The notes: generated from the letters alone by a model not told the origin. Shown: positions 3,674 to 64,000, numbered from the stretch's first letter. The stretch: 64,000 bases of DNA from an uncultured Candidatus Cloacimonadota bacterium (GCA_964573665.1 CAZNKI010000002.1:70526-134525); one strand, 5' to 3'. Translations and numbers: made by a program.

Positions 3674-4412
3674 ACATCATTTGATTCATGTTGTCATAAT
3701 ATGTTGCTACATAATGATGTGAATCATTAACTGCCTGAATAATATCTTCAGTTTGAGATAGTTTCACACAAAAAGCTGTTGAAAAAGCACACCCAGTCCC
3801 ATGAGAATATTTCCATGATTTGCGTTTAAAATCAAAATGATAGATACTGCTTTTTGTTATAAACACTTCATGTATCAGCTCATGTTCAAAATGCCCTCCC
3901 TTTAAATAAAAAGAAAGATTCGAGTCAAAACATTCATTGACGATCCTAATTGCTTCGTTAAGCGTTTGAATATTCTGTTTGCATAACAGCTCTAATTCTA
4001 GTTTATTTGGACATACTATATCCACATAAGGTAATAAATATTTCTTTAAATAATCAATATCAGCATCCTCTAAAAATTTTGTCCCAGAACTTGATTGAAA
4101 TACAGGATCTAAAACTACTGTCCCTTTAAATTTTGTTAAGTGCTTGATGATTACGGGAATTAATGATTGATGAGGGATTAATCCTATTTTTATGCCTTTA
4201 ACAGGAAAATTATCTAACAAATGTGATAAGCATTGATCTAAAAAATCGGTATCAATAGATTTTACTTTTTTTACTTTATGAAAATCTTGAATACTGAATC
4301 CTGTGATGGCAGAAAGACCCCATACTTTAAAGTGATTAAATACTTTTTGGTCTTGTTCTATCCCTGCACCACAAGATGAATCTGAACAGGCGATACTTAT
4401 ATAATAATCCAT
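3654..4412 (-). CDS. thiD: Hydroxymethylpyrimidine/phosphomethylpyrimidine kinase
   Basis: True start likely ATG at 4412 (MDYYISIACSDSSCGAGIEQD). Motifs 'VLDPV', 'PNKLE', 'LKGGH' and 'SHGTGCAFS'; last gene of the thi operon. Confidence 0.88.
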   Translation of the reverse strand: MDYYISIACSDSSCGAGIEQDQKVFNHFKVWGLSAITGFSIQDFHKVKKVKSIDTDFLDQCLSHLLDNFPVKGIKIGLIPHQSLIPVIIKHLTKFKGTVVLDPVFQSSSGTKFLEDADIDYLKKYLLPYVDIVCPNKLELELLCKQNIQTLNEAIRIVNECFDSNLSFYLKGGHFEHELIHEVFITKSSIYHFDFKRKSWKYSHGTGCAFSTAFCVKLSQTEDIIQAVNDSHHYVATYYDNMNQMMFNDQFQ

Positions 4413-4461
4413 TTTATTCTCCAATAAAAATTGATACCCCTTCCTGAGAAGGGGTATAAGC

Positions 4462-5727: not shown

Positions 5728-6353
5728 TGTCTTTCCTTTATCTTTTCTAAAATGAGATCCAGTCTATCTGAAAACTTGTCTGTATGCATGAAATATCTGA
5801 CAAGAGCGAGATTATTAACTCCTTGATCAAGTACATCATGTATATTGCTTATATCAATACCTCCAATACCGACAACCGGGATATGAAAAATCCTACTGCT
5901 TTCCAATACAGCATTTAATGGTTCAAGTCCTGTGACTGGATCAGCTTTGGCTTTCGTTGGTGTAGGGTAGAGGGGGCCAAATCCAATATAATCTGGTTTT
6001 TCACTCAATGCATTAAGGGCTTGAGAAATATTGTGAGTGGATAACCCGATGATCTTTTTACTGCCTAATAATAATTCAGCTTCTTTTTTAGTGATATCAT
6101 CCTGCCCCAAGTGAACTCCATCTGCTCCAGATAAAAGAGCTATGTCAACTCTGTCATTGATGATTAGTTTGGTATTTGTAAAACGACAGATCGAGGCTAG
6201 ATCTTTAGCCATTTGAAGAAGAGTTCGATCATCAAGATTTTTTTCTCTTAACTGAATATAGCGTATCCCTTTTTTTACACAAATTTCAGCAATCTCTGTA
6301 TGTTTTAATACAGGTTGAGTTAAGATGATATAGAGACCAAAATCATTGTCCAT
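5724..6353 (-). CDS. thiE: Thiamine-phosphate synthase
   Basis: Motifs 'IQLREK', 'IINDRVDIA', 'GVHLGQDD', 'GLSTH', 'PTPTK' and 'VGIGGI'. Confidence 0.95.
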   Translation of the reverse strand: MDNDFGLYIILTQPVLKHTEIAEICVKKGIRYIQLREKNLDDRTLLQMAKDLASICRFTNTKLIINDRVDIALLSGADGVHLGQDDITKKEAELLLGSKKIIGLSTHNISQALNALSEKPDYIGFGPLYPTPTKAKADPVTGLEPLNAVLESSRIFHIPVVGIGGIDISNIHDVLDQGVNNLALVRYFMHTDKFSDRLDLILEKIKERQ

Positions 6354-7119
6354 TCTTTAGTTCCATATCTATTAAATGTGCAGCTTTTTCTCCTGATAAA
6401 AGCATTCCTCCGAAAATAGGTCCCATTCTAAATGATCCAAATACACCATTAGCGGCCATTCCTGAAACAAATAAACCTGGATACACTTCTTTAGTGTTCT
6501 CGATAGTACTGCTTTCGCCTTCATACACTGCAAGCGATTTTTCACCCATCAGTGATCCACTCTCTGTATTGAGTCGGATATTATTTTTTTGGGCTGCTAT
6601 TCTTGAAATTTCTGAAGGATGACCAGTGGCATCTAGTACAATTTTTGATACGATCATTAATGGATCGACATGCATGTCTAATCTTCTGACAGGTGTCCAA
6701 TTGATGACAACACCAGATATACGGTCATTTAAAAAAATGACATCTTCAACAGAAATACAATTAAATATCTTTGCCCCAGACTTTGATGCATGATATATGA
6801 GTGAACTGGTAGCTTGAACTGAATCACAGGTTGCGATTTCGTCATCCACTTTTTCAATTTGAATTTCATAACGCTTTAAGATACCCCATGCTTCTTTTTG
6901 TACAACAATCTCATTCATCATCATTGCACCTCCCCACATTCCACCACCAGGGGCAAGTTTACTATCAAATAGTACTACAGAATATCCTTTTTTTGCAAGA
7001 ATTTCGCTGGCTACAAGTCCAGATGGACCTCCTCCAACAATAACGACATCAACACTTAAATGTGATTGTAACTTGTGAAAATATGAAGTTACAATTGCTT
7101 TGGAAACGTTTGCTTCCAT
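6343..7119 (-). CDS. thi4: Sulfide-dependent adenosine diphosphate thiazole synthase (Thi4 family)
   Basis: Motifs 'DVVIVGGGPSGL', 'GGGMWGG', 'HVDPL', 'DATGH' and 'FRMGPIFGGMLLSG'. Confidence 0.93.
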   Translation of the reverse strand: MEANVSKAIVTSYFHKLQSHLSVDVVIVGGGPSGLVASEILAKKGYSVVLFDSKLAPGGGMWGGAMMMNEIVVQKEAWGILKRYEIQIEKVDDEIATCDSVQATSSLIYHASKSGAKIFNCISVEDVIFLNDRISGVVINWTPVRRLDMHVDPLMIVSKIVLDATGHPSEISRIAAQKNNIRLNTESGSLMGEKSLAVYEGESSTIENTKEVYPGLFVSGMAANGVFGSFRMGPIFGGMLLSGEKAAHLIDMELKNGQ

Positions 7120-7198
7120 TACTCCTCCTTTCTTTTTTAAACAGAATTATACTTCTGTCTTTGGGAGGGTAGTGGGCATAGGATTGAGAAATGTGACT

Positions 7199-7272
7199 TT
7201 CTTCCCTACGCCGGCATTACCCGGATCAGGTTCTAAGGGTATAATCTCAGCCCTTGCGAGCACCCCTATGGT
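7199..7272 (-). ncRNA. TPP (thi-box) riboswitch
   Basis: Minus strand reads ATAGGGGTGC..GCTGAGATTATACCCTTAGAACCTGATCCGGGTAATGCCGGCGTAGGGAAG, the consensus thi-box core, about 80 nt upstream of the thi4 start. Confidence 0.95.
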
Positions 7273-7454
7273 GATTTCCACCATAAACTCAGAAAATTAT
7301 ATTGCATAATTTAGTCAAGAAGAAAAGATTAAGTATATCTATAGACGTGTTAAATACTTTAGATATGCAAAATTCAATCTTCTCTTGACAATCTGACTAA
7401 ATCTTATTTTTTAGAGTTATAATGTGGATTGATAAAAAAAGACTGGAGTTGAAG

Positions 7455-15371: not shown

Positions 15372-16256
15372 CTATAATTTTCTCCATCTTCTGTGGACCC
15401 AAAACCACATTTCAGGATATTTTCTTATAAATTCCTCTATATGGTAATTGATTTTTTGAGTTAAGTCAAGGATATTTTCCTCATTTAGCTCAATATTATC
15501 AGTGTAAATGGGTTCACAAATAAAACAGTGATGTTTATAGAAGCCTTTTCGTACATCAAAAGCGATTAATATTGGTGCTTTGGTTTTTAATGATAATTTT
15601 GCAACACTGGTGAAAACTTTTGTCGGAAGACCTAAAAATGGCAAATCAACTCCATGACGCCCTGCATATTGGTCGACAAGGAATCCTACAGTCTCTTTGT
15701 TTAATAATGCGTTGATGATCGGTTTTATGGCGTTTTTCATTGAAAGTACATGCACCCCGGATTCTAATCGTGATTGATTCACATACTCATCAAACAATCT
15801 ATTGCGTTGCTCTTTTACAACAGCGTATATTTTCCCACTCTTGCTTGCCAGAAACTTCGCGCCAATCTCCCAATTTCCAAAGTGCGCAGATACAAAGATT
15901 ATCCCTTTTTTTGCTTCAAGACACTTTTCAAGATAATCAAGACCTTCACATTGCATTTGTTCAAATATTTGTTTATCTTCTGCAATAAATATCTCGCAGA
16001 CAGATTTCCCTAATTCAAAATACATTTGATCTGCAATTCGATTGATTTCCTTGATTGATTTTTCAGGAAAAACAGCACTTATCTGTTTAATGACAAGCGC
16101 TCTTCTGATTCTAAGTACTTTTCCTCCAAACAGAAGGAAATATGCCATAAATCTAACGGTAAATGAATAGGGGAGCATTTTGAAAAAGCCAATAACTCCC
16201 CTGAAACATGTATACTCGATTAGATTCTTGATTTGATTATTTTTTAAAAAGTTCAT
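15372..16256 (-). CDS. Lipid A lauroyl/myristoyl acyltransferase (LpxL/HtrB family)
   Basis: 'SAHFGNWE', 'LVDQ', 'FLGLP', C-terminal 'PEMWFWVHRRW'. Confidence 0.88.
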   Translation of the reverse strand: MNFLKNNQIKNLIEYTCFRGVIGFFKMLPYSFTVRFMAYFLLFGGKVLRIRRALVIKQISAVFPEKSIKEINRIADQMYFELGKSVCEIFIAEDKQIFEQMQCEGLDYLEKCLEAKKGIIFVSAHFGNWEIGAKFLASKSGKIYAVVKEQRNRLFDEYVNQSRLESGVHVLSMKNAIKPIINALLNKETVGFLVDQYAGRHGVDLPFLGLPTKVFTSVAKLSLKTKAPILIAFDVRKGFYKHHCFICEPIYTDNIELNEENILDLTQKINYHIEEFIRKYPEMWFWVHRRWRKL

Positions 16257-23961: not shown

Positions 23962-25407
23962 ATGCTCTTTAACTCGATCGACTTTGCAATATTTCTACCC
24001 ATCGTTTTTATTCTTTATTGGTTTGTTTTTCAGCATTCGATTAAAAAACAGAATGTTCTCTTATTAGTTGCAAGTTATTTCTTCTATGGATATTGGGATT
24101 GGAGATTTTTATCGCTCTTATTCATTAGTTCAATAGCAGATTATATTATCGGGATATCATTAGGAAAAACAGACAATCAAAGCAAGAGAAAGCTTCTTCT
24201 TAGTGCGAGTTTATTGATAAATCTGGGCTTGTTAGGCTTTTTCAAATACTTCAATTTTTTTGCTGAATCTTTCGAACAAGCGTTTACTATCTTTGGCCAT
24301 CATATACAGGCTGATCGATTAAAACTAATTTTACCCGTCGGTATTAGCTTTTATACCTTCCAGACCTTGAGTTACAGCATAGATGTTTATCGTAAAAAAA
24401 TAATTCCAACACATGATTTTATTGGCTTTATAACCTTTGTCTCTTTTTTCCCTCAACTTGTCGCCGGACCTATTGAACGTGCCTCACATTTGCTTCCTCA
24501 GTTTCAAAAACCAAGATGTTTTGATATAGATTTAGCAAAAGATGGACTAAGACAAATTCTCTGGGGTCTTTTTAAAAAGATGGTGATTGCAGATAATTGT
24601 GCTGAATTGGCAAATCAAATATTTGCAAATTATCCTTCTTATAATGGATCGACCTTGCTTTTAGGCGCTTTTCTCTTCTCCATTCAGATTTATGGTGATT
24701 TTTCGGGCTATTCAGATATCGCGATTGGGACTGCACGCTTATTTAGTTTTTCATTAATGAAAAATTTTAATTATCCCTACTTTTCTCGTAATATTGCTGA
24801 ATTTTGGAGAAGATGGCATATCTCTTTATCAACTTGGTTTAGAGATTATGTTTATTTTCCACTTGGGGGAAGTTTTGGAAACCAGTTTCAGAAAATTAGA
24901 AATGTGCTGATTATTTTTGTGCTCAGTGGGTTTTGGCATGGAGCAAACTGGACTTTTATGGTTTGGGGCTTTCTCAACGCTTTGTATTATTTACCTTCTT
25001 TACTCAGTAAAACTAATCGAAAATATGCAGAAACGATTGCTCCAAATAGAATTCTCCCAAATCTTATTGAATTATTTCAAATGCTTTTAACAAATATGCT
25101 GATTATCTTTGCATGGATTTTCTTTCGCGCTCAAAGTGTATCTGATGCACTTTTATACATAAATGGAATTCTGTCTCCGACACTTTTTTACCCCTTAGAT
25201 TTGATGAATGGAAAAATGATCGCTACATTAACGCTTGTGCTTGTCTTCATAATTATTGAGTGGATCGGTCGTAATAATAATTTCGCTTTAGAAAAATTAA
25301 AGTATTTAAGTTTTAGACCCTACAGATGGTCGATTTATTATCTTCTCATCATTGTTCTTTTTATCTTCACAGGAAAAGAACAGCAATTTATTTATTTTCA
25401 GTTTTAA
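23962..25407 (+). CDS. MBOAT-family O-acyltransferase (AlgI/DltB-like)
   Basis: 'LPVGISFYTFQ', 'FFPQLVAGPI', 'DFSGYSDIAIG', 'FWRRWHISLSTWFRDYVY', 'SGFWHGA'. Confidence 0.93.
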   Translation: MLFNSIDFAIFLPIVFILYWFVFQHSIKKQNVLLLVASYFFYGYWDWRFLSLLFISSIADYIIGISLGKTDNQSKRKLLLSASLLINLGLLGFFKYFNFFAESFEQAFTIFGHHIQADRLKLILPVGISFYTFQTLSYSIDVYRKKIIPTHDFIGFITFVSFFPQLVAGPIERASHLLPQFQKPRCFDIDLAKDGLRQILWGLFKKMVIADNCAELANQIFANYPSYNGSTLLLGAFLFSIQIYGDFSGYSDIAIGTARLFSFSLMKNFNYPYFSRNIAEFWRRWHISLSTWFRDYVYFPLGGSFGNQFQKIRNVLIIFVLSGFWHGANWTFMVWGFLNALYYLPSLLSKTNRKYAETIAPNRILPNLIELFQMLLTNMLIIFAWIFFRAQSVSDALLYINGILSPTLFYPLDLMNGKMIATLTLVLVFIIIEWIGRNNNFALEKLKYLSFRPYRWSIYYLLIIVLFIFTGKEQQFIYFQF

Positions 25408-25409
25408 AT

Positions 25410-26330
25410 ATGAAGACACTACATTCTTTTACAAAGTATTTCATTATCTTCCTGATTCCAATCCTTGTTTTAGGAATAATAATGGAAATCGCTCTGAGAA
25501 ATATTCCTAATGATTATCGAAATAAATATCAAACATTTAACAAAGTTGCTGATGAAACACAAATATTAATACTTGGAAATTCACATACACTACATGATCT
25601 TAATCCTGCATTTTTTTCCAAAATAACCTTTAATTATGCCAATCCATCACAGTTATATTTTTTCGATGAACTTATCTTAAAGTCTTATATTAAAAAAATG
25701 AATCATCTGGAATGGATCATTTTACCTGTTTCTTACTTCTCATATTATAGAACTCGTGAAGATTCTGAAGAAATGTGGAGATTTAAAAACTATGTACTCT
25801 ATTCTAAAGTTTACAAAAGTCCACAGATTAAAGACAATTCTGAAGTTTTAGGTAATCAGTTCCGCTTTAATCTCAGAAGATTATACAAAAATTATGTGGT
25901 AAAAGAACCTAATGCAGTGTGCGATTCATTAGGATTTGCTTATAACTATCTTTTAAAAGATAAACAAGATCTGAAAAAGACTGCGAAACATACCATAAAA
26001 TCTCATGATAAAGGGAATGAAGAAAGCATTGCTGTTAATATTGAACTTCTGAAAAGAGTCATCAAGATGGCGCAGGAGCGGAATGTTAAGGTATTATTGA
26101 TTACACCCCCAGGATCAAAAGATTATCAAAAATTACTCAATTCCAATAAATTAAAGAAAGTAATCAATATCAGCACTAATCTTACTAAATATAAGGATGT
26201 CTTCTACATTAATATGCTTTCTGACCCAAGATTTAATGACACAGATTTCTATGATTCTGACCATCTAAATGTCGATGGAGCAGAAAAACTCTCAAAAATT
26301 ATCAATCATTACATCACAAAACACCAGTAG
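25410..26330 (+). CDS. SGNH-like partner of the MBOAT acyltransferase
   Basis: ATG at 25410; N-terminal TM helix; 'ILGNSH' and C-terminal 'FYDSDHLN..GA' (GxS...DxxH). Confidence 0.7.
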   Translation: MKTLHSFTKYFIIFLIPILVLGIIMEIALRNIPNDYRNKYQTFNKVADETQILILGNSHTLHDLNPAFFSKITFNYANPSQLYFFDELILKSYIKKMNHLEWIILPVSYFSYYRTREDSEEMWRFKNYVLYSKVYKSPQIKDNSEVLGNQFRFNLRRLYKNYVVKEPNAVCDSLGFAYNYLLKDKQDLKKTAKHTIKSHDKGNEESIAVNIELLKRVIKMAQERNVKVLLITPPGSKDYQKLLNSNKLKKVINISTNLTKYKDVFYINMLSDPRFNDTDFYDSDHLNVDGAEKLSKIINHYITKHQ

Positions 26331-34526: not shown

Positions 34527-35045
34527 ATGAAAAAAATAATCATTTTAATCTCAATCTTAACTGTATTGATCGGAGCTTTAGCTGCTCAAACTGTGAAAAT
34601 TGCATATATTGACAGTGAAAAAATAATGAAAGAATCAAAAGATACTCAGGAAGCTCAAAAACTTTTCCAAAAAGATAGAGAAGGTTGGACTAAACAGGTC
34701 AATGATGTTGATGCTGAAATAACAAGACTTGAAAATGACTATAATACAAAAAAATTAACCTTATCTGCTGCTGGTAAAAAACAGGCTGAAGAAAAAATTG
34801 AACAGAAAAAAACTGAACGTAAAGAATTAGTTGAAAGCATCTTTGGTGAAAACGGACGCGCTGCTGCTCGTAATGCTGAATTGCTTCAACCCATCATGGC
34901 TAAATTAAGATTGATTATCGAAAAAGTATCTGTTGAACAAAACTATTCGATGATTTTTGATGCGACCAGCGCAGGAATTATTTGGGCTCAACCTAAACTT
35001 GATATTACAGAATCTATTATTTTGGAAATGAATAAAACGGAATAA
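34527..35045 (+). CDS. skp: OmpH/Skp periplasmic chaperone
   Basis: Signal peptide; '[10 protein letters not shown]', coiled-coil body, 'MIFD', 'LDITE.II'; lies upstream of lpxD. Confidence 0.88.
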
Positions 35046-35047
35046 GT

Positions 35048-36082
35048 ATGAAGCTCTTCAAATCAGCTTTGACTTTAGAAAAGATCAATCAATTTGTTCA
35101 GGGTAAATTATCGGTTTCTACTGATAGATTGTTTACCAACGTCGCTGAGCTCCATGAAGCCAATGAACACTCTGTCTGTTTTTATGAAAATGAAAAGTAT
35201 CTGCATCAGGCTGAACAGAGTAAAGCGGGATTAATCATCCTTCCAGAGGGTGTTGTATTAAAAAATGATGCGATTAAGCTTGCCGTTTCAAAGCCCTACT
35301 TCTCATTCATGACTTTAGTGAGTATTTGGCTCAGTATTGATACAAAAAATAGAGTTAACAAGATCTCCGAGCATTGCTCAATTGCAAGCTCTGCTCAGAT
35401 CGGAAACAATGTCTCGATTGCAGATTATGTTGTTATCGAAGAAGGTGTTTCTATTGGAGATCATACGATCATTGAAGCGAATTGTGTCATTAAAGAAAAT
35501 ACAAAAGTTGGGCAATCTTGCCACTTATTCCCCAATGTGACAATCTATCATGACTGCATCGTTGGAAACAACGTGAGTATTCATGCCGGATCAGTGATCG
35601 GTGCAGATGGTTTTGGCTATTTATTGCTCAATGGTCAACAGATCAAGATCCCTCAAGTAGGGAATGTTGTGATCGAGAATGATGTCGAAATAGGCGCAAA
35701 TACTTGTATTGACCGAGCAACGATTGGCACAACTCTGATTAAGTCAGGTGCGAAAATCGATAATCTGGTACAGATTGGTCATAATTGCTCAGTTGATGAA
35801 CATTCAATCATTTGTGCTCAAGTAGGACTCGCAGGTAATTCGAATTTAGGAAAATATGTCTATCTCGGCGGACAAGTTGGCGTCGGTGGACATTTAAAGA
35901 TTGATGACCAAACAATGGTCGGCGCTCAATCTGGAGTCGCTTCTTCAATCAAAACAGGCAAATATTTTGGAAGTCCAGTCATGCCTTTGACGCAACAGCT
36001 TAGAGTGAGCGCGTGCTTAAAGGACTTGCCCGAAATTCATAAATATGTAAAGAAATTGATGAGAGAAAATGATGGAAAATAA
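35048..36082 (+). CDS. lpxD: UDP-3-O-(3-hydroxyacyl)glucosamine N-acyltransferase
   Basis: '[10 protein letters not shown]', '[21 protein letters not shown]', '[11 protein letters not shown]'. Confidence 0.96.
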
Positions 36083-37463
36083 ACAAACAATTGCCGGTCA
36101 AATATCCTTTACAGGCGTTGGCTTACACTTAGGTGAAATTACTACAATTACTTTTAAACCTGCTGAACCCAATGAAGGAATCGTTTTTGTCAGAGTAGAT
36201 CTGCCAGATCAGCCTGAATTCCCTGCTGATATTGACCATGTTCTGGATATATCAAGAGGTACTACACTCGGAATTAAAGGAAAAGCGTCAGTTGCTACCG
36301 TTGAACATGTCTTATCTGCAATAAAAGGTCTTAGAATTGATAATATACGCTGTGAAGTGAACGGACCTGAAGTGCCCGTTGCTGATGGCTCTGCAATTAT
36401 GTTTTTAAGACTGCTCAAAGAAGTTGGATTGGTCGAACAAGATGCAGAACGCGTTTACTTTGAACTCACTGAACCTATCTCTTTTTCTGCACCGGAAGAT
36501 AATGTGGATATCGTGATTGTTCCTTCGAATGAACTAAAAATTACCTTTATGGTTGAATACCAGCATAAAAACCTTGGAACACAATATACATGGCTTCCTT
36601 CACTGGAATATTTTGAAAAGGAATTTGCTCCAGCCAGAACTTTCTGCTTCTTACATGAAATCCTTGCCCTTAAAGAACATGGCTTAATCAAAGGTGGTTC
36701 ACTCACCAATGCTTTAGTCGTGTCTGATCCAGATAAAGATAAAGAAGAAATTGAACGTTTAAGAAAAATGTTTGATTACACTAAAGAAATTCAAACTAAT
36801 GAATATGGTCTTCTTAACACCACCGATTTAAGATTTTATAATGAATTTGTGCGCCATAAAGTCGTAGATCTGATTGGTGATATCGCTCTTCTGGGTATGC
36901 CAATCAAAGGTCATATCTTAGCTGCTCGATCAGGACATAAAACGAATGTCGAATTAGTAAAAAAACTCAAACAGATATTAAAGAAACAGGAATTACAAAA
37001 AATATATCAAAAGAAGAAATCAACTGAAGTGGTTTTTGATATCAATGCGATTATGAAAATATTACCTCATAGATATCCATTCCTACTGGTAGATAAAATC
37101 GTAAGTTTTGTTCCTGGTGAAAGTATTACCGGGATAAAAAATGTGACGATTAATGAGCCCTTCTTCCAAGGTCATTTCCCTGAACATCCTGTGATGCCAG
37201 GTGTGCTTATTGTTGAAGCAATGGCTCAAACAGGAGGTATTATGCTCCTGAATACGATGCCAAATCCCCAAGACTTCGTCGCTTACTTTGCTTCAATTGA
37301 TAATGTGAAATTTAGAAAACCAGTAATGCCTGGTGATACCTTACGCTTTGAGTTAAAAGCAATCTCAATGAAAACCTTTATAACTAAAATGCACGGTGAT
37401 GCTTATGTCGGCGATGAAAAAGTGTGTGAAGGTGATTTCTTAGCGAAAGTCGTTAAAAAATAG
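36069..37463 (+). CDS. lpxC: Bifunctional LpxC deacetylase / FabZ dehydratase
   Basis: LpxC motifs 'TVEHVLSA', 'P..DGSA', 'ARTF', 'HKVVDLIGD', fused to FabZ '[11 protein letters not shown]', '[20 protein letters not shown]'. Confidence 0.95.
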
Positions 37464-37471
37464 AGGTGATA

Positions 37472-38260
37472 ATGAAAGAAATTCATTCAACTGCAATCGT
37501 TCATCCTAACGCTAAAATAGGCGAAAATGTAAAGATTGGTCCTTATTGTATTATTGGTGAAAATGTTGAGCTCGGAGATGAAAATACATTAATCTCTCAT
37601 GTCGTCATTGATGGGCATACAAAGATTGGGAAAAAAAATACATTCTTCCCCTTCTGCTCAATAGGACTTGCTCCTCAGGATTTAAAATATGATGGTGAGC
37701 CTACTCGTGTTGTGATTGGTGATCAAAATCATATCAGAGAATGTGTGACGATTCACCGCTCTGCAAACCTAAATGAAGATACTACACTTGGCTCAAATTG
37801 CTTAATTATGGCTTATGCGCATATCGCTCATAATTGTCATGTCGGAAACAATGTCATCCTGGCAAATTCTGTCAATTTAGCAGGTCATGTTCATATTCAT
37901 GACTTTGTGACAATCGGTGGCGTCAGCGCTGTTCATCAGTTTGTAAAAATTGGTACTCATGCCTTTATTGGCGGTACTTCAGGCGTCAAGAAAGATATCC
38001 CGCCATATACTCGTGGTCAAGGAATGGGACACTATAAAATTGTCGGTCTAAATAGTGTTGGCTTAAGCAGAAAAGGTTTTTCTAATGATGTGATTGAAGG
38101 TATCAAAAAAGTTTATCGCTTATTCTATACCTCAAATATGAATGTAAGCCAGGCTTTAGAAGTTGCCCTTAAAATTGAAAACCCAACTCCTGAACAAGAA
38201 AACTTTATCAAGTTCGTACAGAACTCTGAAAGAGGTATTACTCGGTACGGAAAAGATTAA
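37472..38260 (+). CDS. lpxA: Acyl-ACP--UDP-N-acetylglucosamine O-acyltransferase
   Basis: 'IHSTAIV', 'PQDLKY', 'RECVTIHR', 'MAYAHIAHNC', 'VHQF', 'GLN..GL.R.GF'. Confidence 0.96.
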   Translation: MKEIHSTAIVHPNAKIGENVKIGPYCIIGENVELGDENTLISHVVIDGHTKIGKKNTFFPFCSIGLAPQDLKYDGEPTRVVIGDQNHIRECVTIHRSANLNEDTTLGSNCLIMAYAHIAHNCHVGNNVILANSVNLAGHVHIHDFVTIGGVSAVHQFVKIGTHAFIGGTSGVKKDIPPYTRGQGMGHYKIVGLNSVGLSRKGFSNDVIEGIKKVYRLFYTSNMNVSQALEVALKIENPTPEQENFIKFVQNSERGITRYGKD

Positions 38261-55332: not shown

Positions 55333-56685
55333 TTATGAACACATCATTTCTTTAATTCGGATTTTTGGACCACCGAAAGACACAGGTAAAGGACTTTGTT
55401 CATTCTTCCCGCATCCGCCAAATGCAGAAGATATGATCTTCACCTGGTCTGACAACCCATCAATATCATTTAAAGTCTGGAATACTGTGCCTGTAATGAT
55501 ATTGACCTTGACAGGAGTGCTGATGACACCGTTCTCTATTTTCCAGGCACGGTTGATCGCAAGTGTAAATGTTGATAACCCGCTTCCATGATTCACCTTC
55601 TCGATGTAAAAACCGTTCTGGATGCCTTTACATAAGCTTTCAAAGCTTTCTTTTCCCGCATCAAAATAAGTGCTGGTCATACGTACAATCGGCTCGTAAA
55701 AAAAGTTGATAGAACGTGCATTGCCAGTAATTTCTTCATTGAGTTCTTCAGCAGTTTGAACTGAGTGTAAGCGACCACTTAATATGCCATTTTTAATCAG
55801 ATAGGTTTTTTGTTTTTTATTACCTTCATCATCATAAGGACAATAGCCTGAAGTAAAGGCTTGATCTCCTTCATCTATAATACTGACCATCTCATTGGCT
55901 ACTTTTTTACCAATTTCCCACTCAGCTTGCATACTTTCATCTCCAAGCATAAAATCTGCTTCACTTTTATGACCAAAGCTTTCGTGAGCAAAAATTCCTG
56001 CTGCTTGTTCGCTAAGAATAACAGAGTACTTGCCTGGTTCTATGCAAGGGGCGTGAATGAATCTTTTTGCTGTTTCGATATCCTCTGTTAACTCTTGAGC
56101 AATATTTGCATAATCACTTATATAATGTCCTGTTTTTGTATAACTCGTTGAATACTGATCTTCATTTTCTTTTAATGAATAATATACCATTATTCCTGAT
56201 AATGATTTGTCATAAGAAAACATCTTGCCTTTGCTGTTGATATAATACTTTTTTAATAAATAATCGGTATAGGCAACATAAGATGTTTTGATTAAAGAAT
56301 CTCCTTTTAAAATAGGTATAATTGGCTCAACAATTGATTTCTTATCTTCGAGTTTCTGAAAAACAAGCATACTCTTATCACTGCTCATGAATGATTCACC
56401 TTGATAAATCACACTCTGATAATGATCTTTGATCGCTTCTACTCCTTCGCTTTTTAACAAATGAAGGATCGTTTCTTCGATCTTATCCAAATTGGTTATT
56501 GAAGAATATATCCATTTCTCACCATGCTTAATTCGGATAAATGCGCCTGTGGATAATATTTCTATAGCATTTTCTAACTCACAGTTTGCAAAAACTACTT
56601 CACTTTTTAAGCTTTCTTCAATACGGATATCAATGAAATCACAATTGTATTGATTGAGATTGATTGATTCAAAAATCTTATGCAT
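55333..56685 (-). CDS. tldD: TldD-family metallopeptidase
   Basis: 'GIFAHESFGHKSEAD', 'YDDEG', 'TGNAR', 'PIVRMTSTY', 'GGCGK..Q.PLPVS.GGP'. Confidence 0.88.
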   Translation of the reverse strand: MHKIFESINLNQYNCDFIDIRIEESLKSEVVFANCELENAIEILSTGAFIRIKHGEKWIYSSITNLDKIEETILHLLKSEGVEAIKDHYQSVIYQGESFMSSDKSMLVFQKLEDKKSIVEPIIPILKGDSLIKTSYVAYTDYLLKKYYINSKGKMFSYDKSLSGIMVYYSLKENEDQYSTSYTKTGHYISDYANIAQELTEDIETAKRFIHAPCIEPGKYSVILSEQAAGIFAHESFGHKSEADFMLGDESMQAEWEIGKKVANEMVSIIDEGDQAFTSGYCPYDDEGNKKQKTYLIKNGILSGRLHSVQTAEELNEEITGNARSINFFYEPIVRMTSTYFDAGKESFESLCKGIQNGFYIEKVNHGSGLSTFTLAINRAWKIENGVISTPVKVNIITGTVFQTLNDIDGLSDQVKIISSAFGGCGKNEQSPLPVSFGGPKIRIKEMMCS

Positions 56686-57123
56686 TTTTTTCTCCCTTTT
56701 ACTCCCTTTTTAGAGTTAATACAAAAATATAAATGGATGAAAAATCTTGTCAACAAAAATAATAGTGAATTTCGTTTAATGAAAAAATTGTTCTTAATCT
56801 TTGCTGAACTTATGAATTGCTTTGATAAGATTAAACACAAAACACTTGATTTCAGTTTCATTAAACAATGATTAAAATTGACTCGAAATAGTCTCAAACA
56901 TTCATCCTTGTAAATGAGTTTTCTACAGGATAGGAATAATCGCTTAGTAGGTGGTAGGACAGAAACATCCCGATGAATAGGCACTTCTGATATAAATAAT
57001 CAAAAACCAGATTTTATGAGAATGATTATTATGATAATTACTCTTTTTAACGATTATCAGTTATCTGGATTTGGCTTCTCAAATGATATTTCTCACATAA
57101 CAATAAATTGTAGCGGATTTTGA

Positions 57124-57151
57124 TTGACAATAAATGACTTAAAAATATTCT
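57124..57151 (+). promoter_or_regulatory. Sigma70-like promoter for the prenyltransferase operon
   Basis: TTGACA-16 nt-TATTCT; RBS GAGGAG before ATG 57192. Confidence 0.55.
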
Positions 57152-57191
57152 ATATCAAGAGATAAATCTATATAAGATTAGAGGAGTCAAC

Positions 57192-58082
57192 ATGATCATC
57201 CAAAAATATTTTGAAGATAGAGTTGAACTTTTAAATAAAGTCATGGATCAGTATCTTGTTCCTGAAACAGAAGAACCTAAAGTTCTTTATTCTGCAATGA
57301 GATATTCCATTTTTAATGGTGGAAAGAGATTAAGACCGGTTCTTTTATATGCGACTTATGAAATGCTCAATAAAACAAACGATACTTCTCTTTTAGATCA
57401 GGTGTCTTTGGCTGCAGCTGCAATTGAAATGGTGCATACTGCCTCTTTAATTCACGATGATTTACCTTCTTTAGACAATTCTGATGAAAGACGCGGACAA
57501 CTCAGTTGTCACAAAAAGTTTGATCCTGCCACAGCTATTCTCGCAGGCGATGCGCTTTTAACTAAGTCCTTTGAAATGCTTGCAAAAATTGAAGATAAAC
57601 AAAAAGCCGTTAAATGTATTCAGATTTTGAGTAATGCAATTTCCACACGTGGAATGATTGGTGGTCAAACTGTTGATTTGATCTCTTCCTCAAAACAGAA
57701 TATCCAGATCAATGTACTAAAATATGTGCATTTGAAAAAGACAGGTGCTTTACTTGAAGCTTCAATTAAACTGGCTTGTGCAATGTATGGTGCAGATGAA
57801 AATGTAACGAATACCTTGTCAAATTATGCCCTCAATCTTGGTCTTGCTTACCAGATCATTGACGATATTCTTGATGATGTTGGTGATTTCGAAATGCTTG
57901 GAAAAGAGCCTTATGAAGATTCGAGAAACAATAAAACGACTTATCCATCGATTTTAGGGCTCGATAAAGCAAGAAGAACTGCTGAAAAATTACTTGAAGA
58001 TTCATATAAACTAGTAAAGAATATTCCACATAATCAGATTTTAATTGAATTTGTGCGAATGATAAAAGATCGTTTACCTTAA
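57192..58082 (+). CDS. Short-chain polyprenyl diphosphate synthase (FPP/GGPP synthase family)
   Basis: 'GGKRLRP', FARM 'HTASLIHDDLPSLD...RRG', 'GMIGGQ', 'KTGALL', SARM 'YQIIDDILD'. Confidence 0.92.
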   Translation: MIIQKYFEDRVELLNKVMDQYLVPETEEPKVLYSAMRYSIFNGGKRLRPVLLYATYEMLNKTNDTSLLDQVSLAAAAIEMVHTASLIHDDLPSLDNSDERRGQLSCHKKFDPATAILAGDALLTKSFEMLAKIEDKQKAVKCIQILSNAISTRGMIGGQTVDLISSSKQNIQINVLKYVHLKKTGALLEASIKLACAMYGADENVTNTLSNYALNLGLAYQIIDDILDDVGDFEMLGKEPYEDSRNNKTTYPSILGLDKARRTAEKLLEDSYKLVKNIPHNQILIEFVRMIKDRLP

Positions 58083-58099
58083 GAAATGAGTTTTATCCA

Positions 58100-58954
58100 T
58101 TGATGCTATTTCTGAAAAAATTAAAGATTTTTCGACCAGTTAATTGCCTGTTTTCTTTCTTTTGTACTTATTTTGCTGGCGTTTTGACAGAAGTTGCCTT
58201 AAATCCGCTTGATCATTTTCTCTTAGCATTTTCTGCTGCTATGATCGCCGCTGCAGGATATATTATAAATGATGTGTTTGATTTGGAAATTGATAAAGTT
58301 AATCGTCCAGATCGAGTTTTACCTTTGGGCATTATGTCTGTAAATCAGGCAAAATGGCTCTCTCTTGCATTTGCATTTTGGGGGATCTTGATTAGTTATT
58401 CTTTGCCTGGATTTACTTATTTTATCTTTGCAACCTTCAATACTATTCTTTTATATCTCTACGCTTCGTGCTATAAAAAGAAATTGCTTATTGGAAATCT
58501 GATTGTCGCTTGGTCAACCTCATCTGTCTTTTTGTATGGGGCAATAAATAGTACCGATATTTCATTGATTTATCCAATTACTTTGATTGCCTTTCTTTAC
58601 ACTCTGATTAGAGAGTGGACTAAAACGATTGAAGATATGGAAGGCGATAAAAAAGAAAATGCACATACAATTGCTCTTGTGTTAGGAAAGAAAAAAACAA
58701 TCCTAATCTCTTTTATCCCCTTTATTCTTTGCTTTTTTACCTTATTCTTTTTCTACTTTTATGAGAATATTCTGACATTAACAGAATATTATCTTCTAAA
58801 TATATTGATGATATTCCCACTTTTCTTCTTCTTAATCAATTTAATGAAAAGAAGAGAAGAACAAAAAACGGTCCTGTGGACACAAAAAATGATGAAGTTT
58901 GACCAACTATTGGTTATTCTAATCTTCATATTTAGCCATTTCTTTATTAAGTGA
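58100..58954 (+). CDS. UbiA-family digeranylgeranylglyceryl-phosphate (DGGGP) synthase-like prenyltransferase
   Basis: 'RPVN', 'GYIINDVFDLEIDKVNRPDRVLPLG', 'YA...KK..L.GNL.VA', 'REWTKTIEDMEGD'; multi-pass membrane protein adjacent to GGGP synthase. Confidence 0.82.
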   Translation: MMLFLKKLKIFRPVNCLFSFFCTYFAGVLTEVALNPLDHFLLAFSAAMIAAAGYIINDVFDLEIDKVNRPDRVLPLGIMSVNQAKWLSLAFAFWGILISYSLPGFTYFIFATFNTILLYLYASCYKKKLLIGNLIVAWSTSSVFLYGAINSTDISLIYPITLIAFLYTLIREWTKTIEDMEGDKKENAHTIALVLGKKKTILISFIPFILCFFTLFFFYFYENILTLTEYYLLNILMIFPLFFFLINLMKRREEQKTVLWTQKMMKFDQLLVILIFIFSHFFIK

Positions 58955-58961
58955 GGATTAA

Positions 58962-59711
58962 ATGAAAAATGATACCTATTTGAAACTTTTAAAAAAGCGA
59001 GAACAGCATCCTTGTTTGTTTTGTTTAATCGATCCAGATAAAAATGACATAAAGACCAGTGTAAAATACGCTGAAATCTATGAAAAAAGTGATGCTGATG
59101 CCATTTTAATAGGTGGCAGTATTATGATCAAAGATCAATTTGAGCAAACAATCAAAGAGATAAAGAAAGTTGTGAATATCCCTGTTATTATTTTTCCAGG
59201 CTTATTCAATTTTGTGAGTCAGTATGCTGATGCGATTCTTCTTTTAAGTATGCTGAGCAGTAGAAATCCTCAGGTTTTAATCGAAGAACAGGTGCGATGT
59301 GCGCCACAGATTTATCAGACAGGTTTGGAAAGTATTCCAACAGGATATCTTTTGATCGAATCAGGCAATCTTTCCTCAGTGCAATATATGAGTAATAGCC
59401 TTCCAATTCCAAGGAAAAAGAATGATATTGCAATCGTTCATGCCCTTGCTGGTCAATATTTAGGAATGAAAATGATCTATCTCGAAGCAGGTAGCGGAGC
59501 GCAACAGTCTGTCCCTGAAGAAATGATCAAAAGTGTCTCAGAAATTATTGATATTCCCCTAATCGTCGGCGGAGGAATAAGAACACCTCAGGATGCCCAT
59601 AGTAAAGCATTTGCTGGTGCTGATTTTGTAGTGATCGGTACAGTGCTTGAAGATCTGAATGATTTTTCAATAGTTAAAGAATTTAGTCAGGCTGTTCACT
59701 CTGCAAAATGA
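58962..59711 (+). CDS. Geranylgeranylglyceryl-phosphate (GGGP) synthase, group II
   Basis: 'LIDPDK', 'ILIGGS', 'IFPG', 'ADAIL', 'SRNP', 'TGYLLIESG', 'YLEAGSGA', 'VGGGIR', 'VVIGT'. Confidence 0.92.
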   Translation: MKNDTYLKLLKKREQHPCLFCLIDPDKNDIKTSVKYAEIYEKSDADAILIGGSIMIKDQFEQTIKEIKKVVNIPVIIFPGLFNFVSQYADAILLLSMLSSRNPQVLIEEQVRCAPQIYQTGLESIPTGYLLIESGNLSSVQYMSNSLPIPRKKNDIAIVHALAGQYLGMKMIYLEAGSGAQQSVPEEMIKSVSEIIDIPLIVGGGIRTPQDAHSKAFAGADFVVIGTVLEDLNDFSIVKEFSQAVHSAK

Positions 59712-59735: not shown

Positions 59736-60533
59736 ATGATTGATATTCATAATCATCTTTTATTCAATCTTGACGATGGCGCTGATGATCTTGAAACTAC
59801 TCTTCAATATTTAAAACTTGCTGAAGATTCTGGAGTGAAACACTTAGTTTTTACACCACATTACATGCCTGGTTATTACAATAACCATAAAAATAAAATT
59901 CAAACTTCATTTCATGAAGTGTTGAAACATAAAAATGATTACGCCCCGAATTTGACTCTTTATCATTCTGCAGAAGTGTATCTCAATGGTGATACCATCA
60001 TTGATGATATCTATCGGGAAAACTTCTTTATCAATAATACTCAATATGTACTCATCGAAAATAACCTAAATGGCTTTACAGATGATCTTTTTAACTTACT
60101 CTTTCAAATGAACAGAAAGGGTTTACGTCCAATATTAGCACATCCAGAAAGATACAAGGATATTCGTGAAAATGTACAGATTGCAGAAGACTTTATGCAA
60201 AGAGATGTTTATTTGCAAATCAATACAGGCAGCCTATTAGGTGCTCATGGCTCACAAGTTAAGAATGTTGCCCTGGAATTGATTGATAGAGGTTGGGCTC
60301 ATTTCTTAGGATCTGATTGCCATTGTCATTCAGGTGTGTATGATTATGCTGAAGCGCTTGAATTGATTCGAAAAGAGTTTGACGATAAGACAGCTGAACT
60401 GCTCTCAAATACTTTTCCTTCAAAGATGCTTAAGAATGAATCAGTCCCTTATTTTTACCTCAGCAGACAGTTACCCCCAAAGAAGAAAAGTGCTATTGAT
60501 AAATTCTTGTCTTTTATTGGACTATCAGATTAA
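59736..60533 (+). CDS. CpsB/CapC (YwqE-like) PHP-family tyrosine phosphatase
   Basis: 'MIDIHNH...DDGA', 'TPH', 'ILAHPERY', 'LGSDCH'. Confidence 0.9.
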   Translation: MIDIHNHLLFNLDDGADDLETTLQYLKLAEDSGVKHLVFTPHYMPGYYNNHKNKIQTSFHEVLKHKNDYAPNLTLYHSAEVYLNGDTIIDDIYRENFFINNTQYVLIENNLNGFTDDLFNLLFQMNRKGLRPILAHPERYKDIRENVQIAEDFMQRDVYLQINTGSLLGAHGSQVKNVALELIDRGWAHFLGSDCHCHSGVYDYAEALELIRKEFDDKTAELLSNTFPSKMLKNESVPYFYLSRQLPPKKKSAIDKFLSFIGLSD

Positions 60534-60552: not shown

Positions 60553-61527
60553 ATGAAAAAATTGCTTATTACTGGAATTACGGGTTTTATCGGTAAAAAT
60601 GTAGCTCGAAAGATCATAGATCAATATGAAGTAACAGCGCTGATTCGTCCTAAAAGTGCCGTGAACCGCTTTTCTGAGTTTAAAGATAAAATTAACTTTG
60701 TGGAAATAGATCTCGCAAATATCAAAGCGCTAAAAGCTTTCTTAGATAAAAATGCTTTTGATTATATCGTTCATATCGGTGCAATTCGTGGAGGAAGAAA
60801 ATTCTCCAAAGAAGAATATCAAAAAGCGAATGTTTTTGCTACAGAACAATTAGTGCTTAATGCCGTAAAAAATAACTCAAAACTGCTCTTTTGCTCTTCT
60901 GTTGGCGTCTTTGGTGCGATACCAATTGAACTTCCAGCAAACAACCTTACACCAAAACAAGAAGACAATTATTATCATTTTACGAAAATCAGATGTGAAT
61001 CGATTATACAGAAATATGTACTTTCTGGGAAACTCAATGCATATATTCTCAGACCTTCCATTACTTATGGGGGAGAGGACTATGGTTTCCCATATACTTT
61101 ATGCAAACTAATCGACAAAAAGATACTCGTTTATCCCGATCAGCCCATCCGAATCCACATGACACATATCGATTTGATTACTGAAGCCTTTGTTAAAGCG
61201 CTTGAATCAGAATGTCTTAGTGGAAAAGAATGGATCATCGCCGATGATAAACCAGTGATTTTTGAAAACCTGATTCAGTTCATTGCTGATAAGCTTCATC
61301 ATAAAGCATATCCAGACAATCGTAAGATTGACCCTTTCTTTTTTGAAACAGGTGAACGGATTAGTCGTTTGATTAATAGTGAATTATGGGTCAGTCGCTT
61401 TGAGTTGATCTCAAAAAACTGGTATTATGATGTGAAAGATGCTTATGAAGATCTGAAACTAAAAAAATATGAAACGATACCGATGTTCAAGAAAACAATT
61501 GACTGGTATCTGTCCTTAAAAAAATAA
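60553..61527 (+). CDS. NAD-dependent epimerase/dehydratase (extended SDR)
   Basis: 'ITGITGFIG' GxxGxxG, 'CSSVGVFG', catalytic 'YHFTK', 'LRPSITYG'. Confidence 0.88.
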   Translation: MKKLLITGITGFIGKNVARKIIDQYEVTALIRPKSAVNRFSEFKDKINFVEIDLANIKALKAFLDKNAFDYIVHIGAIRGGRKFSKEEYQKANVFATEQLVLNAVKNNSKLLFCSSVGVFGAIPIELPANNLTPKQEDNYYHFTKIRCESIIQKYVLSGKLNAYILRPSITYGGEDYGFPYTLCKLIDKKILVYPDQPIRIHMTHIDLITEAFVKALESECLSGKEWIIADDKPVIFENLIQFIADKLHHKAYPDNRKIDPFFFETGERISRLINSELWVSRFELISKNWYYDVKDAYEDLKLKKYETIPMFKKTIDWYLSLKK

Positions 61528-62407: not shown

Positions 62408-63418
62408 ATGAATAAAATGATAACAAAGATACTCATTAGTATCGGCATTGGACTTGTTTTTTTGGTGATTTGGTGGCATTGGATTGATTTTCCTTTGCTG
62501 GTATCCTATTTCTCAAAAATCAATGTAAAAGTAGCAATTCTTGCTTTTATCTTTTATATCTTTTCATATTTTATTCGCTCTTATCGATGGAGATTATTAC
62601 TCTCCACTTCCAAAAAGATCAAACAAAAAGACGCTTTCTCTTATCTGATGGCAGGTAACTTTATCAATTATCTGATACCAATCAGAGCAGGTGAAGTGAC
62701 AAAATGTCTCTTTATCAAAAAAAACTACGGCATCCCGATGAGTCAGTCTTTTCCTTCGGTATTTATCGATAAGTTATTCGATATGTTTGGAATCTTTGTG
62801 ATTATTATTCTGATCCCTTTGATCCCAATCAATTTAGATCCATATCTTTCTTCGCTGATCTTTCTTTTGATTTTTGTCTTTTTCTTTGGCGCTTCTGTAC
62901 TTATTTTTGCAACATATAAAGAAGAAAAGGTGATTACTCTTTTGCAAAAGATGTTATTTTTCTTTCCAAAGAAATATAAAATCAAAATCCACGATTTTAT
63001 CGAATTGTTCATTCAAGGAACAGCAATATTCAAAAATCATATCAACTTACTTCTGCCTTGTATCCTTCTTACGCTTTGTTCAGTGGTTTGTGATAGTTTA
63101 TTCTTTTGGAGTGTGTTTAAAGCATTCTCTCAAAAGATTGACTTTGTCTTTGTACTTTTTGGTTATACTTTAATTTTTCTCAGTTATATATTACCACATC
63201 CTCCAGCGCAAATTGGATCAAATGAACTGATCATGGTTCTGATTTTCTCAGTTGGATTTGGCTACTCAAAAGAAATGGTCAGTGCCGTTATGACCTTCTC
63301 TCATCTCATAACAGGCATTATTGTGGTTACAGTGGGTATGCTCGGATTGAGCTACTCTGGATTTAACTTAATTGATTTTTTAAGAAATGGAGATAAAAAT
63401 GAATCAAGAGATGCGTAA
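62408..63418 (+). CDS. UPF0104 / lysylphosphatidylglycerol-synthase TM-domain (flippase-like) membrane protein
   Basis: 'RSYRWRLLL', '[14 protein letters not shown]', 'DKLFD', '[11 protein letters not shown]'; multi-pass membrane protein. Confidence 0.85.
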
Positions 63419-64000
63419 TTTAGAAATCCTCGACAATTTAAAAAACACAAAAGAACAGATCTTGAAAGAATTACATAAAGTAATTATTGGTCAGGATCAG
63501 GTGATTGAGCAGATCATGATTGCTATGTTTGCCAACGGACATTGTCTGATTGAAGGTGTGCCTGGTTTAGCAAAAACATTAATGATTTCAACTCTGGCAA
63601 AAATCCTCCAGCTCAAGTTCAGCCGTATTCAATTTACTCCTGACTTGATGCCTTCTGATATTACAGGAACAGAAGTCCTTACTGAAAACAAAAATGATGG
63701 ATCACGCTTCTTCCAGTTTATCAAGGGTCCCATTTTCTCCAATCTGATCTTAGCCGATGAAATTAATAGAACACCACCTAAAACTCAATCAGCTTTACTT
63801 CAGGCGATGCAGGAATTTCAGGTGAGTGTTGGCAATACAACTTATCCTTTAAACGCTCCATTTCTTGTACTGGCGACACAGAATCCTATTGAACAGGAAG
63901 GAACCTATCCTTTGCCTGAAGCGCAGCTTGACCGCTTTATGATGAATATTATTGTTGATTATCCTGATTTTGAAGAAGAAAAGAAAATTGTCATGAGTAC
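63399..64000 (+). CDS. MoxR-family AAA+ ATPase (5' part; runs off the window end)
   Basis: Not in the ORF track. Translated by hand from ATG 63399: 'KVIIGQ', '[14 protein letters not shown]', '[15 protein letters not shown]', '[22 protein letters not shown]', '[22 protein letters not shown]'. Confidence 0.92.

Follow-up and report, generated by a model that had tools for sequence, protein, structure and literature searches.

The 64,000-nucleotide stretch analysed here, referred to throughout as the window, belongs to an uncultured Candidatus Cloacimonadota bacterium (GCA_964573665.1, CAZNKI010000002.1:70526-134525). At positions 57192-59711 it carries three closely packed genes on one strand, whose predicted products are a short-chain prenyl synthase, a membrane prenyltransferase of the UbiA superfamily and a geranylgeranylglyceryl phosphate (GGGP) synthase, hereafter GGGPS. 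Open reading frames (ORFs) and Pfam matches confirm the coordinates, spacing and identities that a first-pass annotation of the same DNA had given. The three genes, together with a promoter-like site ahead of them, are as follows.

57192-58082, + strand: short-chain trans-isoprenyl diphosphate synthase (type II, bacterial/plant-like), predicted geranylgeranyl diphosphate (GGPP) synthase; 296 aa; PF00348
58103-58954, + strand: UbiA-superfamily membrane prenyltransferase of the digeranylgeranylglyceryl phosphate (DGGGP) synthase type; 283 aa from ATG; PF01040
58962-59711, + strand: group II GGGP synthase, TIM barrel; 249 aa; PF01884
57124-57151, + strand: sigma-70-like hexamer pair TTGACA-16-TATTCT, 5' of the prenyl synthase gene; 10/12 matches

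The first gap within the trio is 17 or 20 bp, because the UbiA gene can start at TTG 58100 (284 aa) or at ATG 58103, the latter being the independent gene call on identical public contigs; the second gap is 7 bp. A Shine-Dalgarno-like AGAGGAG lies 5' of the ATG at 57192. The sigma-70-like promoter proposed in the first-pass annotation does exist as a site, but in this AT-rich region the promoter scan found 32 such sites against 29.5 +/- 7 expected, so that it carries no weight as evidence. The terminator scan of the region likewise stayed at chance level, and an Rfam search gave no match in or near the trio. Upstream, a 506-bp AT-rich gap (56685-57192) extends from a divergent TldD/PmbA-like pair to the prenyl synthase gene; the ORFs within it are all short (63-125 aa) and of low complexity, and Rfam gives no match there.

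Predicted enzymes of the trio

The GGGPS matches PF01884 (PcrB; E 7.7e-45, 153.5 bits against a cutoff of 23.9) and passes two NCBIfam models, NF003198 (291 bits, cutoff 247) and TIGR01769, named 'GGGP' (209 bits, cutoff 161.55). In the PDB its matches are the Methanothermobacter enzyme 4MM1 (E 1e-51), the Flavobacterium johnsoniae enzyme 4JEJ (1.3e-51) and, far behind, PcrB/heptaprenylglyceryl phosphate synthase (HepGPS; 7e-5), and the segments YLEAGSGA and VGGGIR are conserved in the PDB alignment. The NCBIfam group I models (A. fulgidus, Halobacteria, HepGPS) give 32-47 bits. These scores bear out the earlier call: the sequence is that of a group II enzyme, nearer to group II than to group I GGGPS or PcrB. 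The protein is predicted to form the first ether bond, that of GGGP.

The UbiA protein matches PF01040 (E 1.5e-31). Its five best NCBIfam models are all DGGGP synthase (DGGGPS) or archaeal prenyltransferase models, at 171, 170, 141, 110 and 102 bits, compared with 70 for ChlG, 39.5 for UbiA and 15 for MenA. Among solved structures its best match, over the whole length, is M. jannaschii DGGGPS (6M31; E 7.9e-32, 114 bits), followed by chlorophyll synthase at 9e-5 (25.6 bits) and A. pernix UbiA (ApUbiA) at 2e-3 (21 bits). The two Asp-rich motifs of a DGGGPS, NDxxDxxxD and DxxxD within a UbiA fold, are both present: the first reads NDVFDLEID where 6M31 has NDIFDIEID, and the second (EDMEGD) stands in EDMEGDKKE, which is identical to 6M31. 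A search of 5.8 billion proteins returned 414 matches at E <= 1e-10, and those bearing a name are called 'geranylgeranylglycerol-phosphate geranylgeranyltransferase', except for two named 'UbiA family prenyltransferase' and one 'hypothetical protein'. Their named sources are Cloacimonadota/Cloacimonetes, archaea (Promethearchaeota, Heimdallarchaeia, Nitrososphaerota, Methanobacteriota) and Chryseosolibacter indicus. In the same database, identity to the UbiA protein falls from 94% and 78% straight to 47%. Score ranking, PDB matches and database names all support the DGGGPS-type assignment of the first-pass annotation, in that the protein groups with DGGGPS and not with MenA, UbiA/COQ2 or ChlG. 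It is predicted to form the second ether bond, that of DGGGP.

The prenyl synthase (PF00348, polyprenyl_synt, E 1.7e-59) scores 300 bits against the broad NCBIfam FPPsyn subfamily model (cutoff 275), in agreement with its earlier description as a short-chain enzyme. Both catalytic motifs are intact, the first aspartate-rich motif (FARM) as DDLPSLD at residue 89 and the second (SARM) as DDILD at residue 224. According to a chain-length rule attributed to Ohnuma and co-workers, an aromatic residue at position -4 or -5 before the FARM reportedly limits the length of the product. Here position -5 is Ala (EMVHTASLIHDDLPSLD) and the -5/-4 pair is Ala-Ser, with no aromatic residue at either place; Tyr-Ser stands there in the farnesyl diphosphate (FPP) synthase structures 4F62, 1RTR, 3TS7 and 3LOM, and Gly-Ser in the GGPP synthase structure 4LFE. 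Under this rule, an enzyme with Ala at -5 should make a product that exceeds C15; the simplest candidate is GGPP, which we take as the probable product.

From the gene identities, subfamily placement, motif integrity and synteny established here, we consider it likely that the trio is the form which the archaeal core pathway for diether lipids takes in Cloacimonadota.

An eight-gene string with a variable cassette

When species-representative genomes are compared, the closest relatives of the GGGPS all come from Candidatus Cloacimonadota, with identities of 79%, 70% and, after these, 55-58%. Public assemblies from three sequencing runs contain the exact protein, and two of them are long enough to show the same arrangement. 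The order prenyl synthase-UbiA-GGGPS is identical in 36 distinct related loci, including that of NIOZ-UU4 (L087). No adjacent UbiA gene was detected in the 20 GGGPS-query loci from genomes that do not bear the label Cloacimonadota, in about half of which the GGGPS gene lies in a recA-recX-alaS-GGGPS-SIS context. The first-pass annotation had extended the co-localised pair to other genomes of the Fibrobacterota-Chlorobiota-Bacteroidota (FCB) group; this has to be narrowed, since the pair is reported, and was seen here, only in Cloacimonadota (0/20 of the other loci).

Five further genes on the same strand come after the trio.

59736-60533, + strand: PHP-family phosphatase (CpsB/YwqE-like protein-tyrosine phosphatase); PF19567, E 1.1e-49
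60553-61527, + strand: extended short-chain dehydrogenase/reductase (SDR; NAD-dependent epimerase/dehydratase, 3-beta-hydroxysteroid dehydrogenase (3-beta-HSD)-like); PF01370, E 6.5e-28; PF01073, 45.7 bits
61540-62391, + strand: class I S-adenosylmethionine-dependent methyltransferase; PF08241, E 7.6e-8
62408-63418, + strand: flippase-like membrane protein (LPG_synthase_TM); PF03706, E 6.1e-42; TIGR00374, 100 bits (cutoff 43)
63399-64000, + strand: MoxR-type AAA ATPase, cut by the window end; 90% identity by tblastn to the L001 orthologue

A full-length copy of the MoxR gene in L028 matches PF07726/PF20030. Along the whole string the gaps are 20, 7, 24, 19, 12 and 16 bp, followed by a 20-nt overlap between the flippase-like and MoxR genes, and the terminator scan found no terminator-like site on the + strand between any of the genes. 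The order prenyl synthase-UbiA-GGGPS-PHP-SDR-methyltransferase-flippase-like-MoxR is kept in every full Cloacimonadota locus with enough flank, and the same eight genes stand in this order in NIOZ-UU4 (L087) and NIOZ-UU2 (L080). The transcription unit is probably one of eight genes, with the trio at its head, in place of the three-gene unit first described.

The composition of this string varies between lineages. A scan anchored on the methyltransferase gave 164 relatives, 80 of which, almost all from Cloacimonadota, were fetched as loci. The full string is present in 36 distinct loci, two of them from the window's own strain, while 16 loci have the order prenyl synthase-PHP-SDR-methyltransferase-flippase-like-MoxR with neither UbiA nor GGGPS; about 10 have GGGPS-PHP-SDR-methyltransferase without an adjacent prenyl synthase or UbiA gene, and about 11 have the SDR-methyltransferase pair alone. 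In a neighbour-joining tree of the SDR and methyltransferase sequences, the pair-less loci fall in at least three clades, so that UbiA-GGGPS behaves as a dispensable cassette between the prenyl synthase gene and the PHP gene. A genome scan meant to show whether GGGPS is wholly absent where the cassette is lacking gave at least 595 relatives, spread over the FCB group and further phyla, a listing that cannot show such absence; we therefore rely on the published figure, according to which 24% of Cloacimonadota genomes carry both the GGGPS and the DGGGPS gene (bioRxiv 10.1101/2021.10.08.463351). The variable cassette fits that figure.

The presence of the cassette goes together with the state of the prenyl synthase. 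Wherever UbiA and GGGPS are present (36/36 loci), the DDxxxxD and DDxxD motifs and the Ala-Ser pair are kept; in 14 of the 16 pair-less loci both Asp-rich motifs are altered within an open reading frame, the other two being intact, although these counts are phylogenetically clustered and not independent, and perhaps represent two decay events and one recent loss. The altered first motif reads DDLPxxM/K (e.g. DDLPSVM) or SALPSLN, and the second EDIxx (e.g. EDIEA) or NDILx. The decayed motifs are found in L069, L085, L086, L089, L092, L093, L096, L098-L101, L104, L105 and L108, where the protein may be a pseudoenzyme or may have been repurposed. Such decay would be expected of a prenyl synthase whose purpose is to supply the two enzymes that form the ether bonds.

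The same pattern bears on a different reading of the locus, namely that the prenyl synthase is a housekeeping FPP synthase (IspA) and that the UbiA protein prenylates some other acceptor, leaving only a mono-ether, either GGGP or some shorter analogue, to be formed, as in Flavobacteria and Bacilli. This would agree with the FPPsyn score, with a UbiA protein that lies under all DGGGPS cutoffs, and with the other phyla sampled, in which GGGPS without an adjacent UbiA gene is the rule. We nevertheless regard it as quite improbable. The Tyr that limits chain length five residues ahead of the FARM is Ala here, and the decay of the catalytic motifs where the pair is lacking argues against a sole housekeeping FPP synthase, which should not tolerate it. 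Moreover, the UbiA protein matches M. jannaschii DGGGPS over its full length, 90 bits closer than any other solved UbiA protein, and an orthologous UbiA was needed for archaeol formation in E. coli (PMC7852524).

A Gfo/Idh/MocA oxidoreductase gene lies 5' of the prenyl synthase gene in 26/36 full loci (e.g. L002 7120-8151) and in 0/16 pair-less loci; there is none in the window. It was considered as the missing enzyme forming glycerol-1-phosphate (G1P) and dropped as probably non-specific, because it is not in the window, lies on other contigs in the closest relatives and has homologues of 60-65% identity in many unrelated phyla.

Given the archaeal type of these genes, we also asked whether an error of assembly or binning might have joined archaeal DNA to a bacterial contig. 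Nothing was found in favour of this explanation, and we give it virtually no weight. The same 64 kb carries lpxA, lpxC and lpxD, housekeeping genes and a protein with a type IX secretion system (T9SS) tail, which fits the FCB group. Contigs of Mb scale show the identical arrangement, as do independent assemblies from two sequencing runs and the 36 distinct related loci in other assemblies; in the published study, PCR across the NIOZ-UU3 locus confirmed that assembly (PMC7852524). GC content is uniform across the window, at 0.32-0.37 in the cassette against 0.34 overall, and so gives no sign of recent transfer or chimerism; a compositional test for recent horizontal transfer of the cassette gave no signal either.

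Downstream genes, lipid A genes and other window features

The four complete genes 3' of the trio were considered for a part in ether-lipid metabolism. The best solved relatives of the PHP protein are the tyrosine phosphatases YwqE (2.2e-31) and CpsB (1.6e-24), and the gene persists in loci without GGGPS; a role as a lipid phosphate phosphatase is unsupported. A CpsB-like PHP gene also lies directly 3' of GGGPS in a Cytophagia-labelled locus (L010, 10742-11551) and in a Deferribacteres-labelled locus (L027, 8841-9716), the context being otherwise recA-recX-alaS-GGGPS.

For the SDR, the best NCBIfam match is HpnA, at 60 bits against a cutoff of 368, and its weak matches include the lipid-associated HpnA, OleD and 3-beta-HSD. 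The SDR-methyltransferase pair is conserved across Cloacimonadota and in one Calditrichota-labelled metagenome-assembled genome (MAG). Since this pair occurs in many loci without adjacent GGGPS or UbiA, the SDR is an unlikely candidate for a non-canonical G1P dehydrogenase or alkyl-dihydroxyacetone phosphate reductase.

The methyltransferase family has its centre in Cloacimonadota; it comprises 728 relatives with generic names only, and its named sources are Cloacimonadota and Calditrichota-labelled MAGs. With the confident AlphaFold2 model (pLDDT 86.9), Foldseek returned only generic class I methyltransferases, at a TM-score of about 0.5. These include prenyl-diphosphate C-methyltransferases and also sugar, tRNA and small-molecule enzymes, and the fold led to no assignment of function.

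In the Calditrichota-labelled contig (L189, which is the same as L063; JAADJD010000012.1, 8032-17811), the SDR-methyltransferase pair is followed by a family 2 glycosyltransferase (GT2), a double GT2 and a PMT_2-type GT-C. Further 3' lie an intact GGPP synthase-like prenyl synthase gene and a gene for a 356-aa UbiA protein. This UbiA protein is not DGGGPS-like, and the locus was rejected as a second DGGGPS association. Genes of prenyl and glycosyl transfer here accompany SDR-methyltransferase for a second time, on a contig that bears the label of another phylum.

These genes invite a reading in which the trio makes not a bulk phospholipid but a minor, specialised isoprenoid glycerol ether, which the PHP, SDR, methyltransferase and flippase-like proteins process and export. 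Bacillus PcrB offers a likeness, its heptaprenylglyceryl phosphate being dephosphorylated and acetylated. The four genes belong to the same string, with gaps of 12-24 bp and an order conserved in all full loci, and in L010 and L027, from two MAGs that bear the labels of other phyla, GGGPS is likewise followed by a PHP gene. The lipid-associated character of the weak SDR matches points the same way, as do the lack of CarS in the window and the Calditrichota-labelled contig, on which SDR-methyltransferase keeps company with a further intact prenyl synthase as well as UbiA, GT2 and GT-C genes. Nevertheless, PHP-SDR-methyltransferase-flippase-like occurs in 16 loci without UbiA and GGGPS, and SDR-methyltransferase alone in about 11 more; the PHP protein closely matches the protein-tyrosine phosphatases YwqE and CpsB, the fold search with the methyltransferase gave nothing specific, and the Calditrichota UbiA protein is not of the DGGGPS type. 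On balance, we judge this reading unlikely, and continue to favour the diether-lipid core pathway.

The PHP, SDR, methyltransferase and flippase-like genes are also found where the cassette is lacking, and so are probably not specific to ether lipids. Read cautiously, the downstream genes may form a module for modifying an envelope glycan or a polyprenyl lipid, probably transcribed together with the cassette in this lineage; that they tailor ether lipids directly seems distinctly unlikely. In a more specific version, which we hold to be improbable, the cassette would supply this module and not bulk phospholipid. The module would remove the phosphate from an isoprenoid glycerol ether, modify the ether and carry it to the outer leaflet or the outer membrane, and in cassette-less lineages it would act on another polyprenyl lipid. 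If that were true, the recurrence of SDR-methyltransferase next to an intact GGPP synthase-like prenyl synthase, UbiA, GT2 and GT-C on a Calditrichota-labelled contig would mark a new family of prenyl-lipid tailoring enzymes.

Elsewhere in the window lie genes of the bacterial lipid A pathway and their neighbours.

34527-35045, + strand: OmpH/Skp gene, just 5' of lpxD
35048-36082, + strand: lpxD; NCBIfam 366 bits (cutoff 207)
36069-37463, + strand: bifunctional lpxC/fabZ fusion; NCBIfam 616 bits (cutoff 465)
37466-38260, + strand: lpxA; NCBIfam 355 bits (cutoff 226)
15372-16256, - strand: LpxL-type late (lysophospholipid/lipid A) acyltransferase; PF03279 Lip_A_acyltrans, E 1.4e-53, 182 bits

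The lpxD, lpxC-fabZ, lpxA and LpxL-type genes listed in the first-pass annotation were thus all recovered, lpxA, lpxC and lpxD above their NCBIfam cutoffs and the LpxL-type gene by Pfam. The LpxL-type protein passes no NCBIfam equivalog cutoff, its best model, a lauroyl acyltransferase, giving 139 bits against 248. The genes lpxB, lpxH/I, lpxK and waaA are not in this window. Among the 51 window ORFs of at least 120 aa, there is no match to the G1P dehydrogenase, CarS, CdsA or geranylgeranyl reductase families, which upholds the earlier observation for the first two.

Two further features of the window are recorded here. A thiamine pyrophosphate (TPP) riboswitch (RF00059, 70.5 bits) at 7184-7277 on the - strand stands 5' of a thi4-thiE-thiC-thiD operon (3654-7119, - strand), whose thiazole synthase is of the sulfide-dependent Thi4 type (TIGR00292, 275 bits). 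Thi4 represents the archaeal and eukaryotic route rather than ThiG/ThiH. At 23962-26330 on the + strand, the gene for a membrane-bound O-acyltransferase (MBOAT) overlaps a DUF1574 gene, which suggests an AlgI/AlgJ- or DltB-like pair for the O-acylation of an envelope polymer.

Proposed pathway and relation to known systems

In the proposed pathway, the prenyl synthase would condense isopentenyl diphosphate onto dimethylallyl diphosphate or FPP to give GGPP. The soluble TIM-barrel GGGPS would then join one geranylgeranyl chain to glycerol phosphate, creating the first ether bond in GGGP, and the membrane UbiA-type enzyme would add the second chain to give DGGGP. As the literature proposes, bacterial enzymes of the CdsA/PgsA type would then carry out activation with cytidine diphosphate and attach the head groups; the window contains none of them, and the bacterial route is presumed because CarS and G1P dehydrogenase are not in the window either.

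Experimental support for such a pathway comes from orthologous loci. Villanueva et al. (ISME J 2021, PMC7852524) described co-localised polyprenyl synthase, DGGGPS and GGGPS genes in four Candidatus Cloacimonetes MAGs, NIOZ-UU1 to UU4, confirmed the NIOZ-UU3 scaffold by PCR and detected transcripts of the locus in the Black Sea. Purified NIOZ-UU3 GGGPS forms GGGP in vitro both with G1P and with glycerol-3-phosphate; GGGPS and DGGGPS together led in E. coli to a phosphatidylglycerol (PG)-type archaeol, PG-unsat(8)-archaeol, and the orthologous UbiA was required for the formation of PG-archaeol (PMC7852524). These activities were shown by others on orthologues about 40-58% identical to the proteins considered here. 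By inference, the copy in the window would be active and may contribute to the membranes of its host.

The same study found egsA/araM and carS absent from the Cloacimonetes MAGs, proposed the mixed-membrane idea, and reported that among bacteria the co-localisation of GGGPS and DGGGPS is restricted to the Cloacimonadota phylum (PMC7852524). Partial Raetz pathways were present in all 46 Cloacimonadota genomes examined, and the ether-lipid genes co-occur with the Raetz pathway across the phylum (bioRxiv 10.1101/2021.10.08.463351). The constellation behind the mixed-membrane idea, with GGGPS, DGGGPS-type and polyprenyl synthase genes co-localised on a Cloacimonadota contig, is present in this window.

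Several points weigh against the trio as a diether-lipid core. The prenyl synthase passes the FPPsyn cutoff and fails that of the CrtE GGPP synthase model (267 against 460 bits), and its assignment to GGPP depends on a single chain-length position. The UbiA protein lies below every curated NCBIfam DGGGPS equivalog cutoff (171/296, 170/269, 141/353), and it is the fastest-evolving member of the trio, with 34-56% identity where GGGPS has 51-79% and the prenyl synthase 51-85%. In our view these models were built on archaeal clades, and this would account for scores under their cutoffs. In addition, the 64-kb window lacks a G1P dehydrogenase, CarS or geranylgeranyl reductase gene, the clustering of the motif-decay counts lessens their force, and as of a 2025 follow-up there was no Cloacimonadota isolate with analysed lipids and no in vivo lipid evidence (PMC11868695). 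Set beside the domain, motif and synteny data, these points temper our preference for the diether-lipid core pathway, which remains the likely reading.

Bacteria that hold the pathways of both fatty-acid ester and archaeal isoprenoid ether lipids bear on the 'lipid divide' and on the natural viability of mixed membranes. That point was made and partly tested between 2018 and 2021, so that the window only adds another lineage. The trio itself is already known from Cloacimonadota, having been published and tested in E. coli in 2020-21, and the first-pass annotation was right to call the core not new: PMC7852524 already contains the locus, the missing G1P dehydrogenase and CarS, and the idea of a mixed membrane. 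The downstream genes, the variable presence of the cassette and the motif decay are not mentioned in its main text or its supplementary text file. What is new is comparative and of moderate value: the GGPP synthase signature, the string of eight genes, the variability of the cassette and the decay of the motifs. These details lend sequence-level support to the adjacent prenyl synthase as a dedicated supplier of GGPP, and they flag four probably co-transcribed downstream genes as candidates beside the pathway.

Compared with the archaeal system, represented by the GGGPS 4MM1 and the DGGGPS 6M31, the proteins of the trio are alike in full-length homology, in their phosphate-binding and Asp-rich motifs and in the predicted two-step ether chemistry. 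The differences lie in the bacterial host, in EgsA, CarS and archaeal head-group enzymes, which are not in the window, and in the UbiA protein, which is too divergent for the archaeal equivalog cutoffs. With regard to bacterial enzymes, the GGGPS is as close to that of F. johnsoniae (4JEJ) as to archaeal 4MM1, and only a distant match to Bacillus PcrB/HepGPS (1VIZ, 3VZX). Unlike bacterial GGGPS genes that have no DGGGPS partner, it is adjoined here by a DGGGPS-type UbiA gene and a dedicated prenyl synthase gene.

The nearest known system is the NIOZ locus (PMC7852524). It shares with the window the phylum, the three genes and their order, a bacterial lipid pathway alongside, and the lack of G1P dehydrogenase and CarS, which for the present locus refers to the 64-kb window. 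Related loci differ in the Gfo/Idh/MocA gene, found 5' in 26/36 and not here. The window lineage is distinct from NIOZ-UU4, with 58% identity for GGGPS, 41% for UbiA and 51% for the prenyl synthase, yet NIOZ-UU4 and NIOZ-UU2 carry the same downstream string of PHP, SDR, methyltransferase, flippase-like and MoxR genes.

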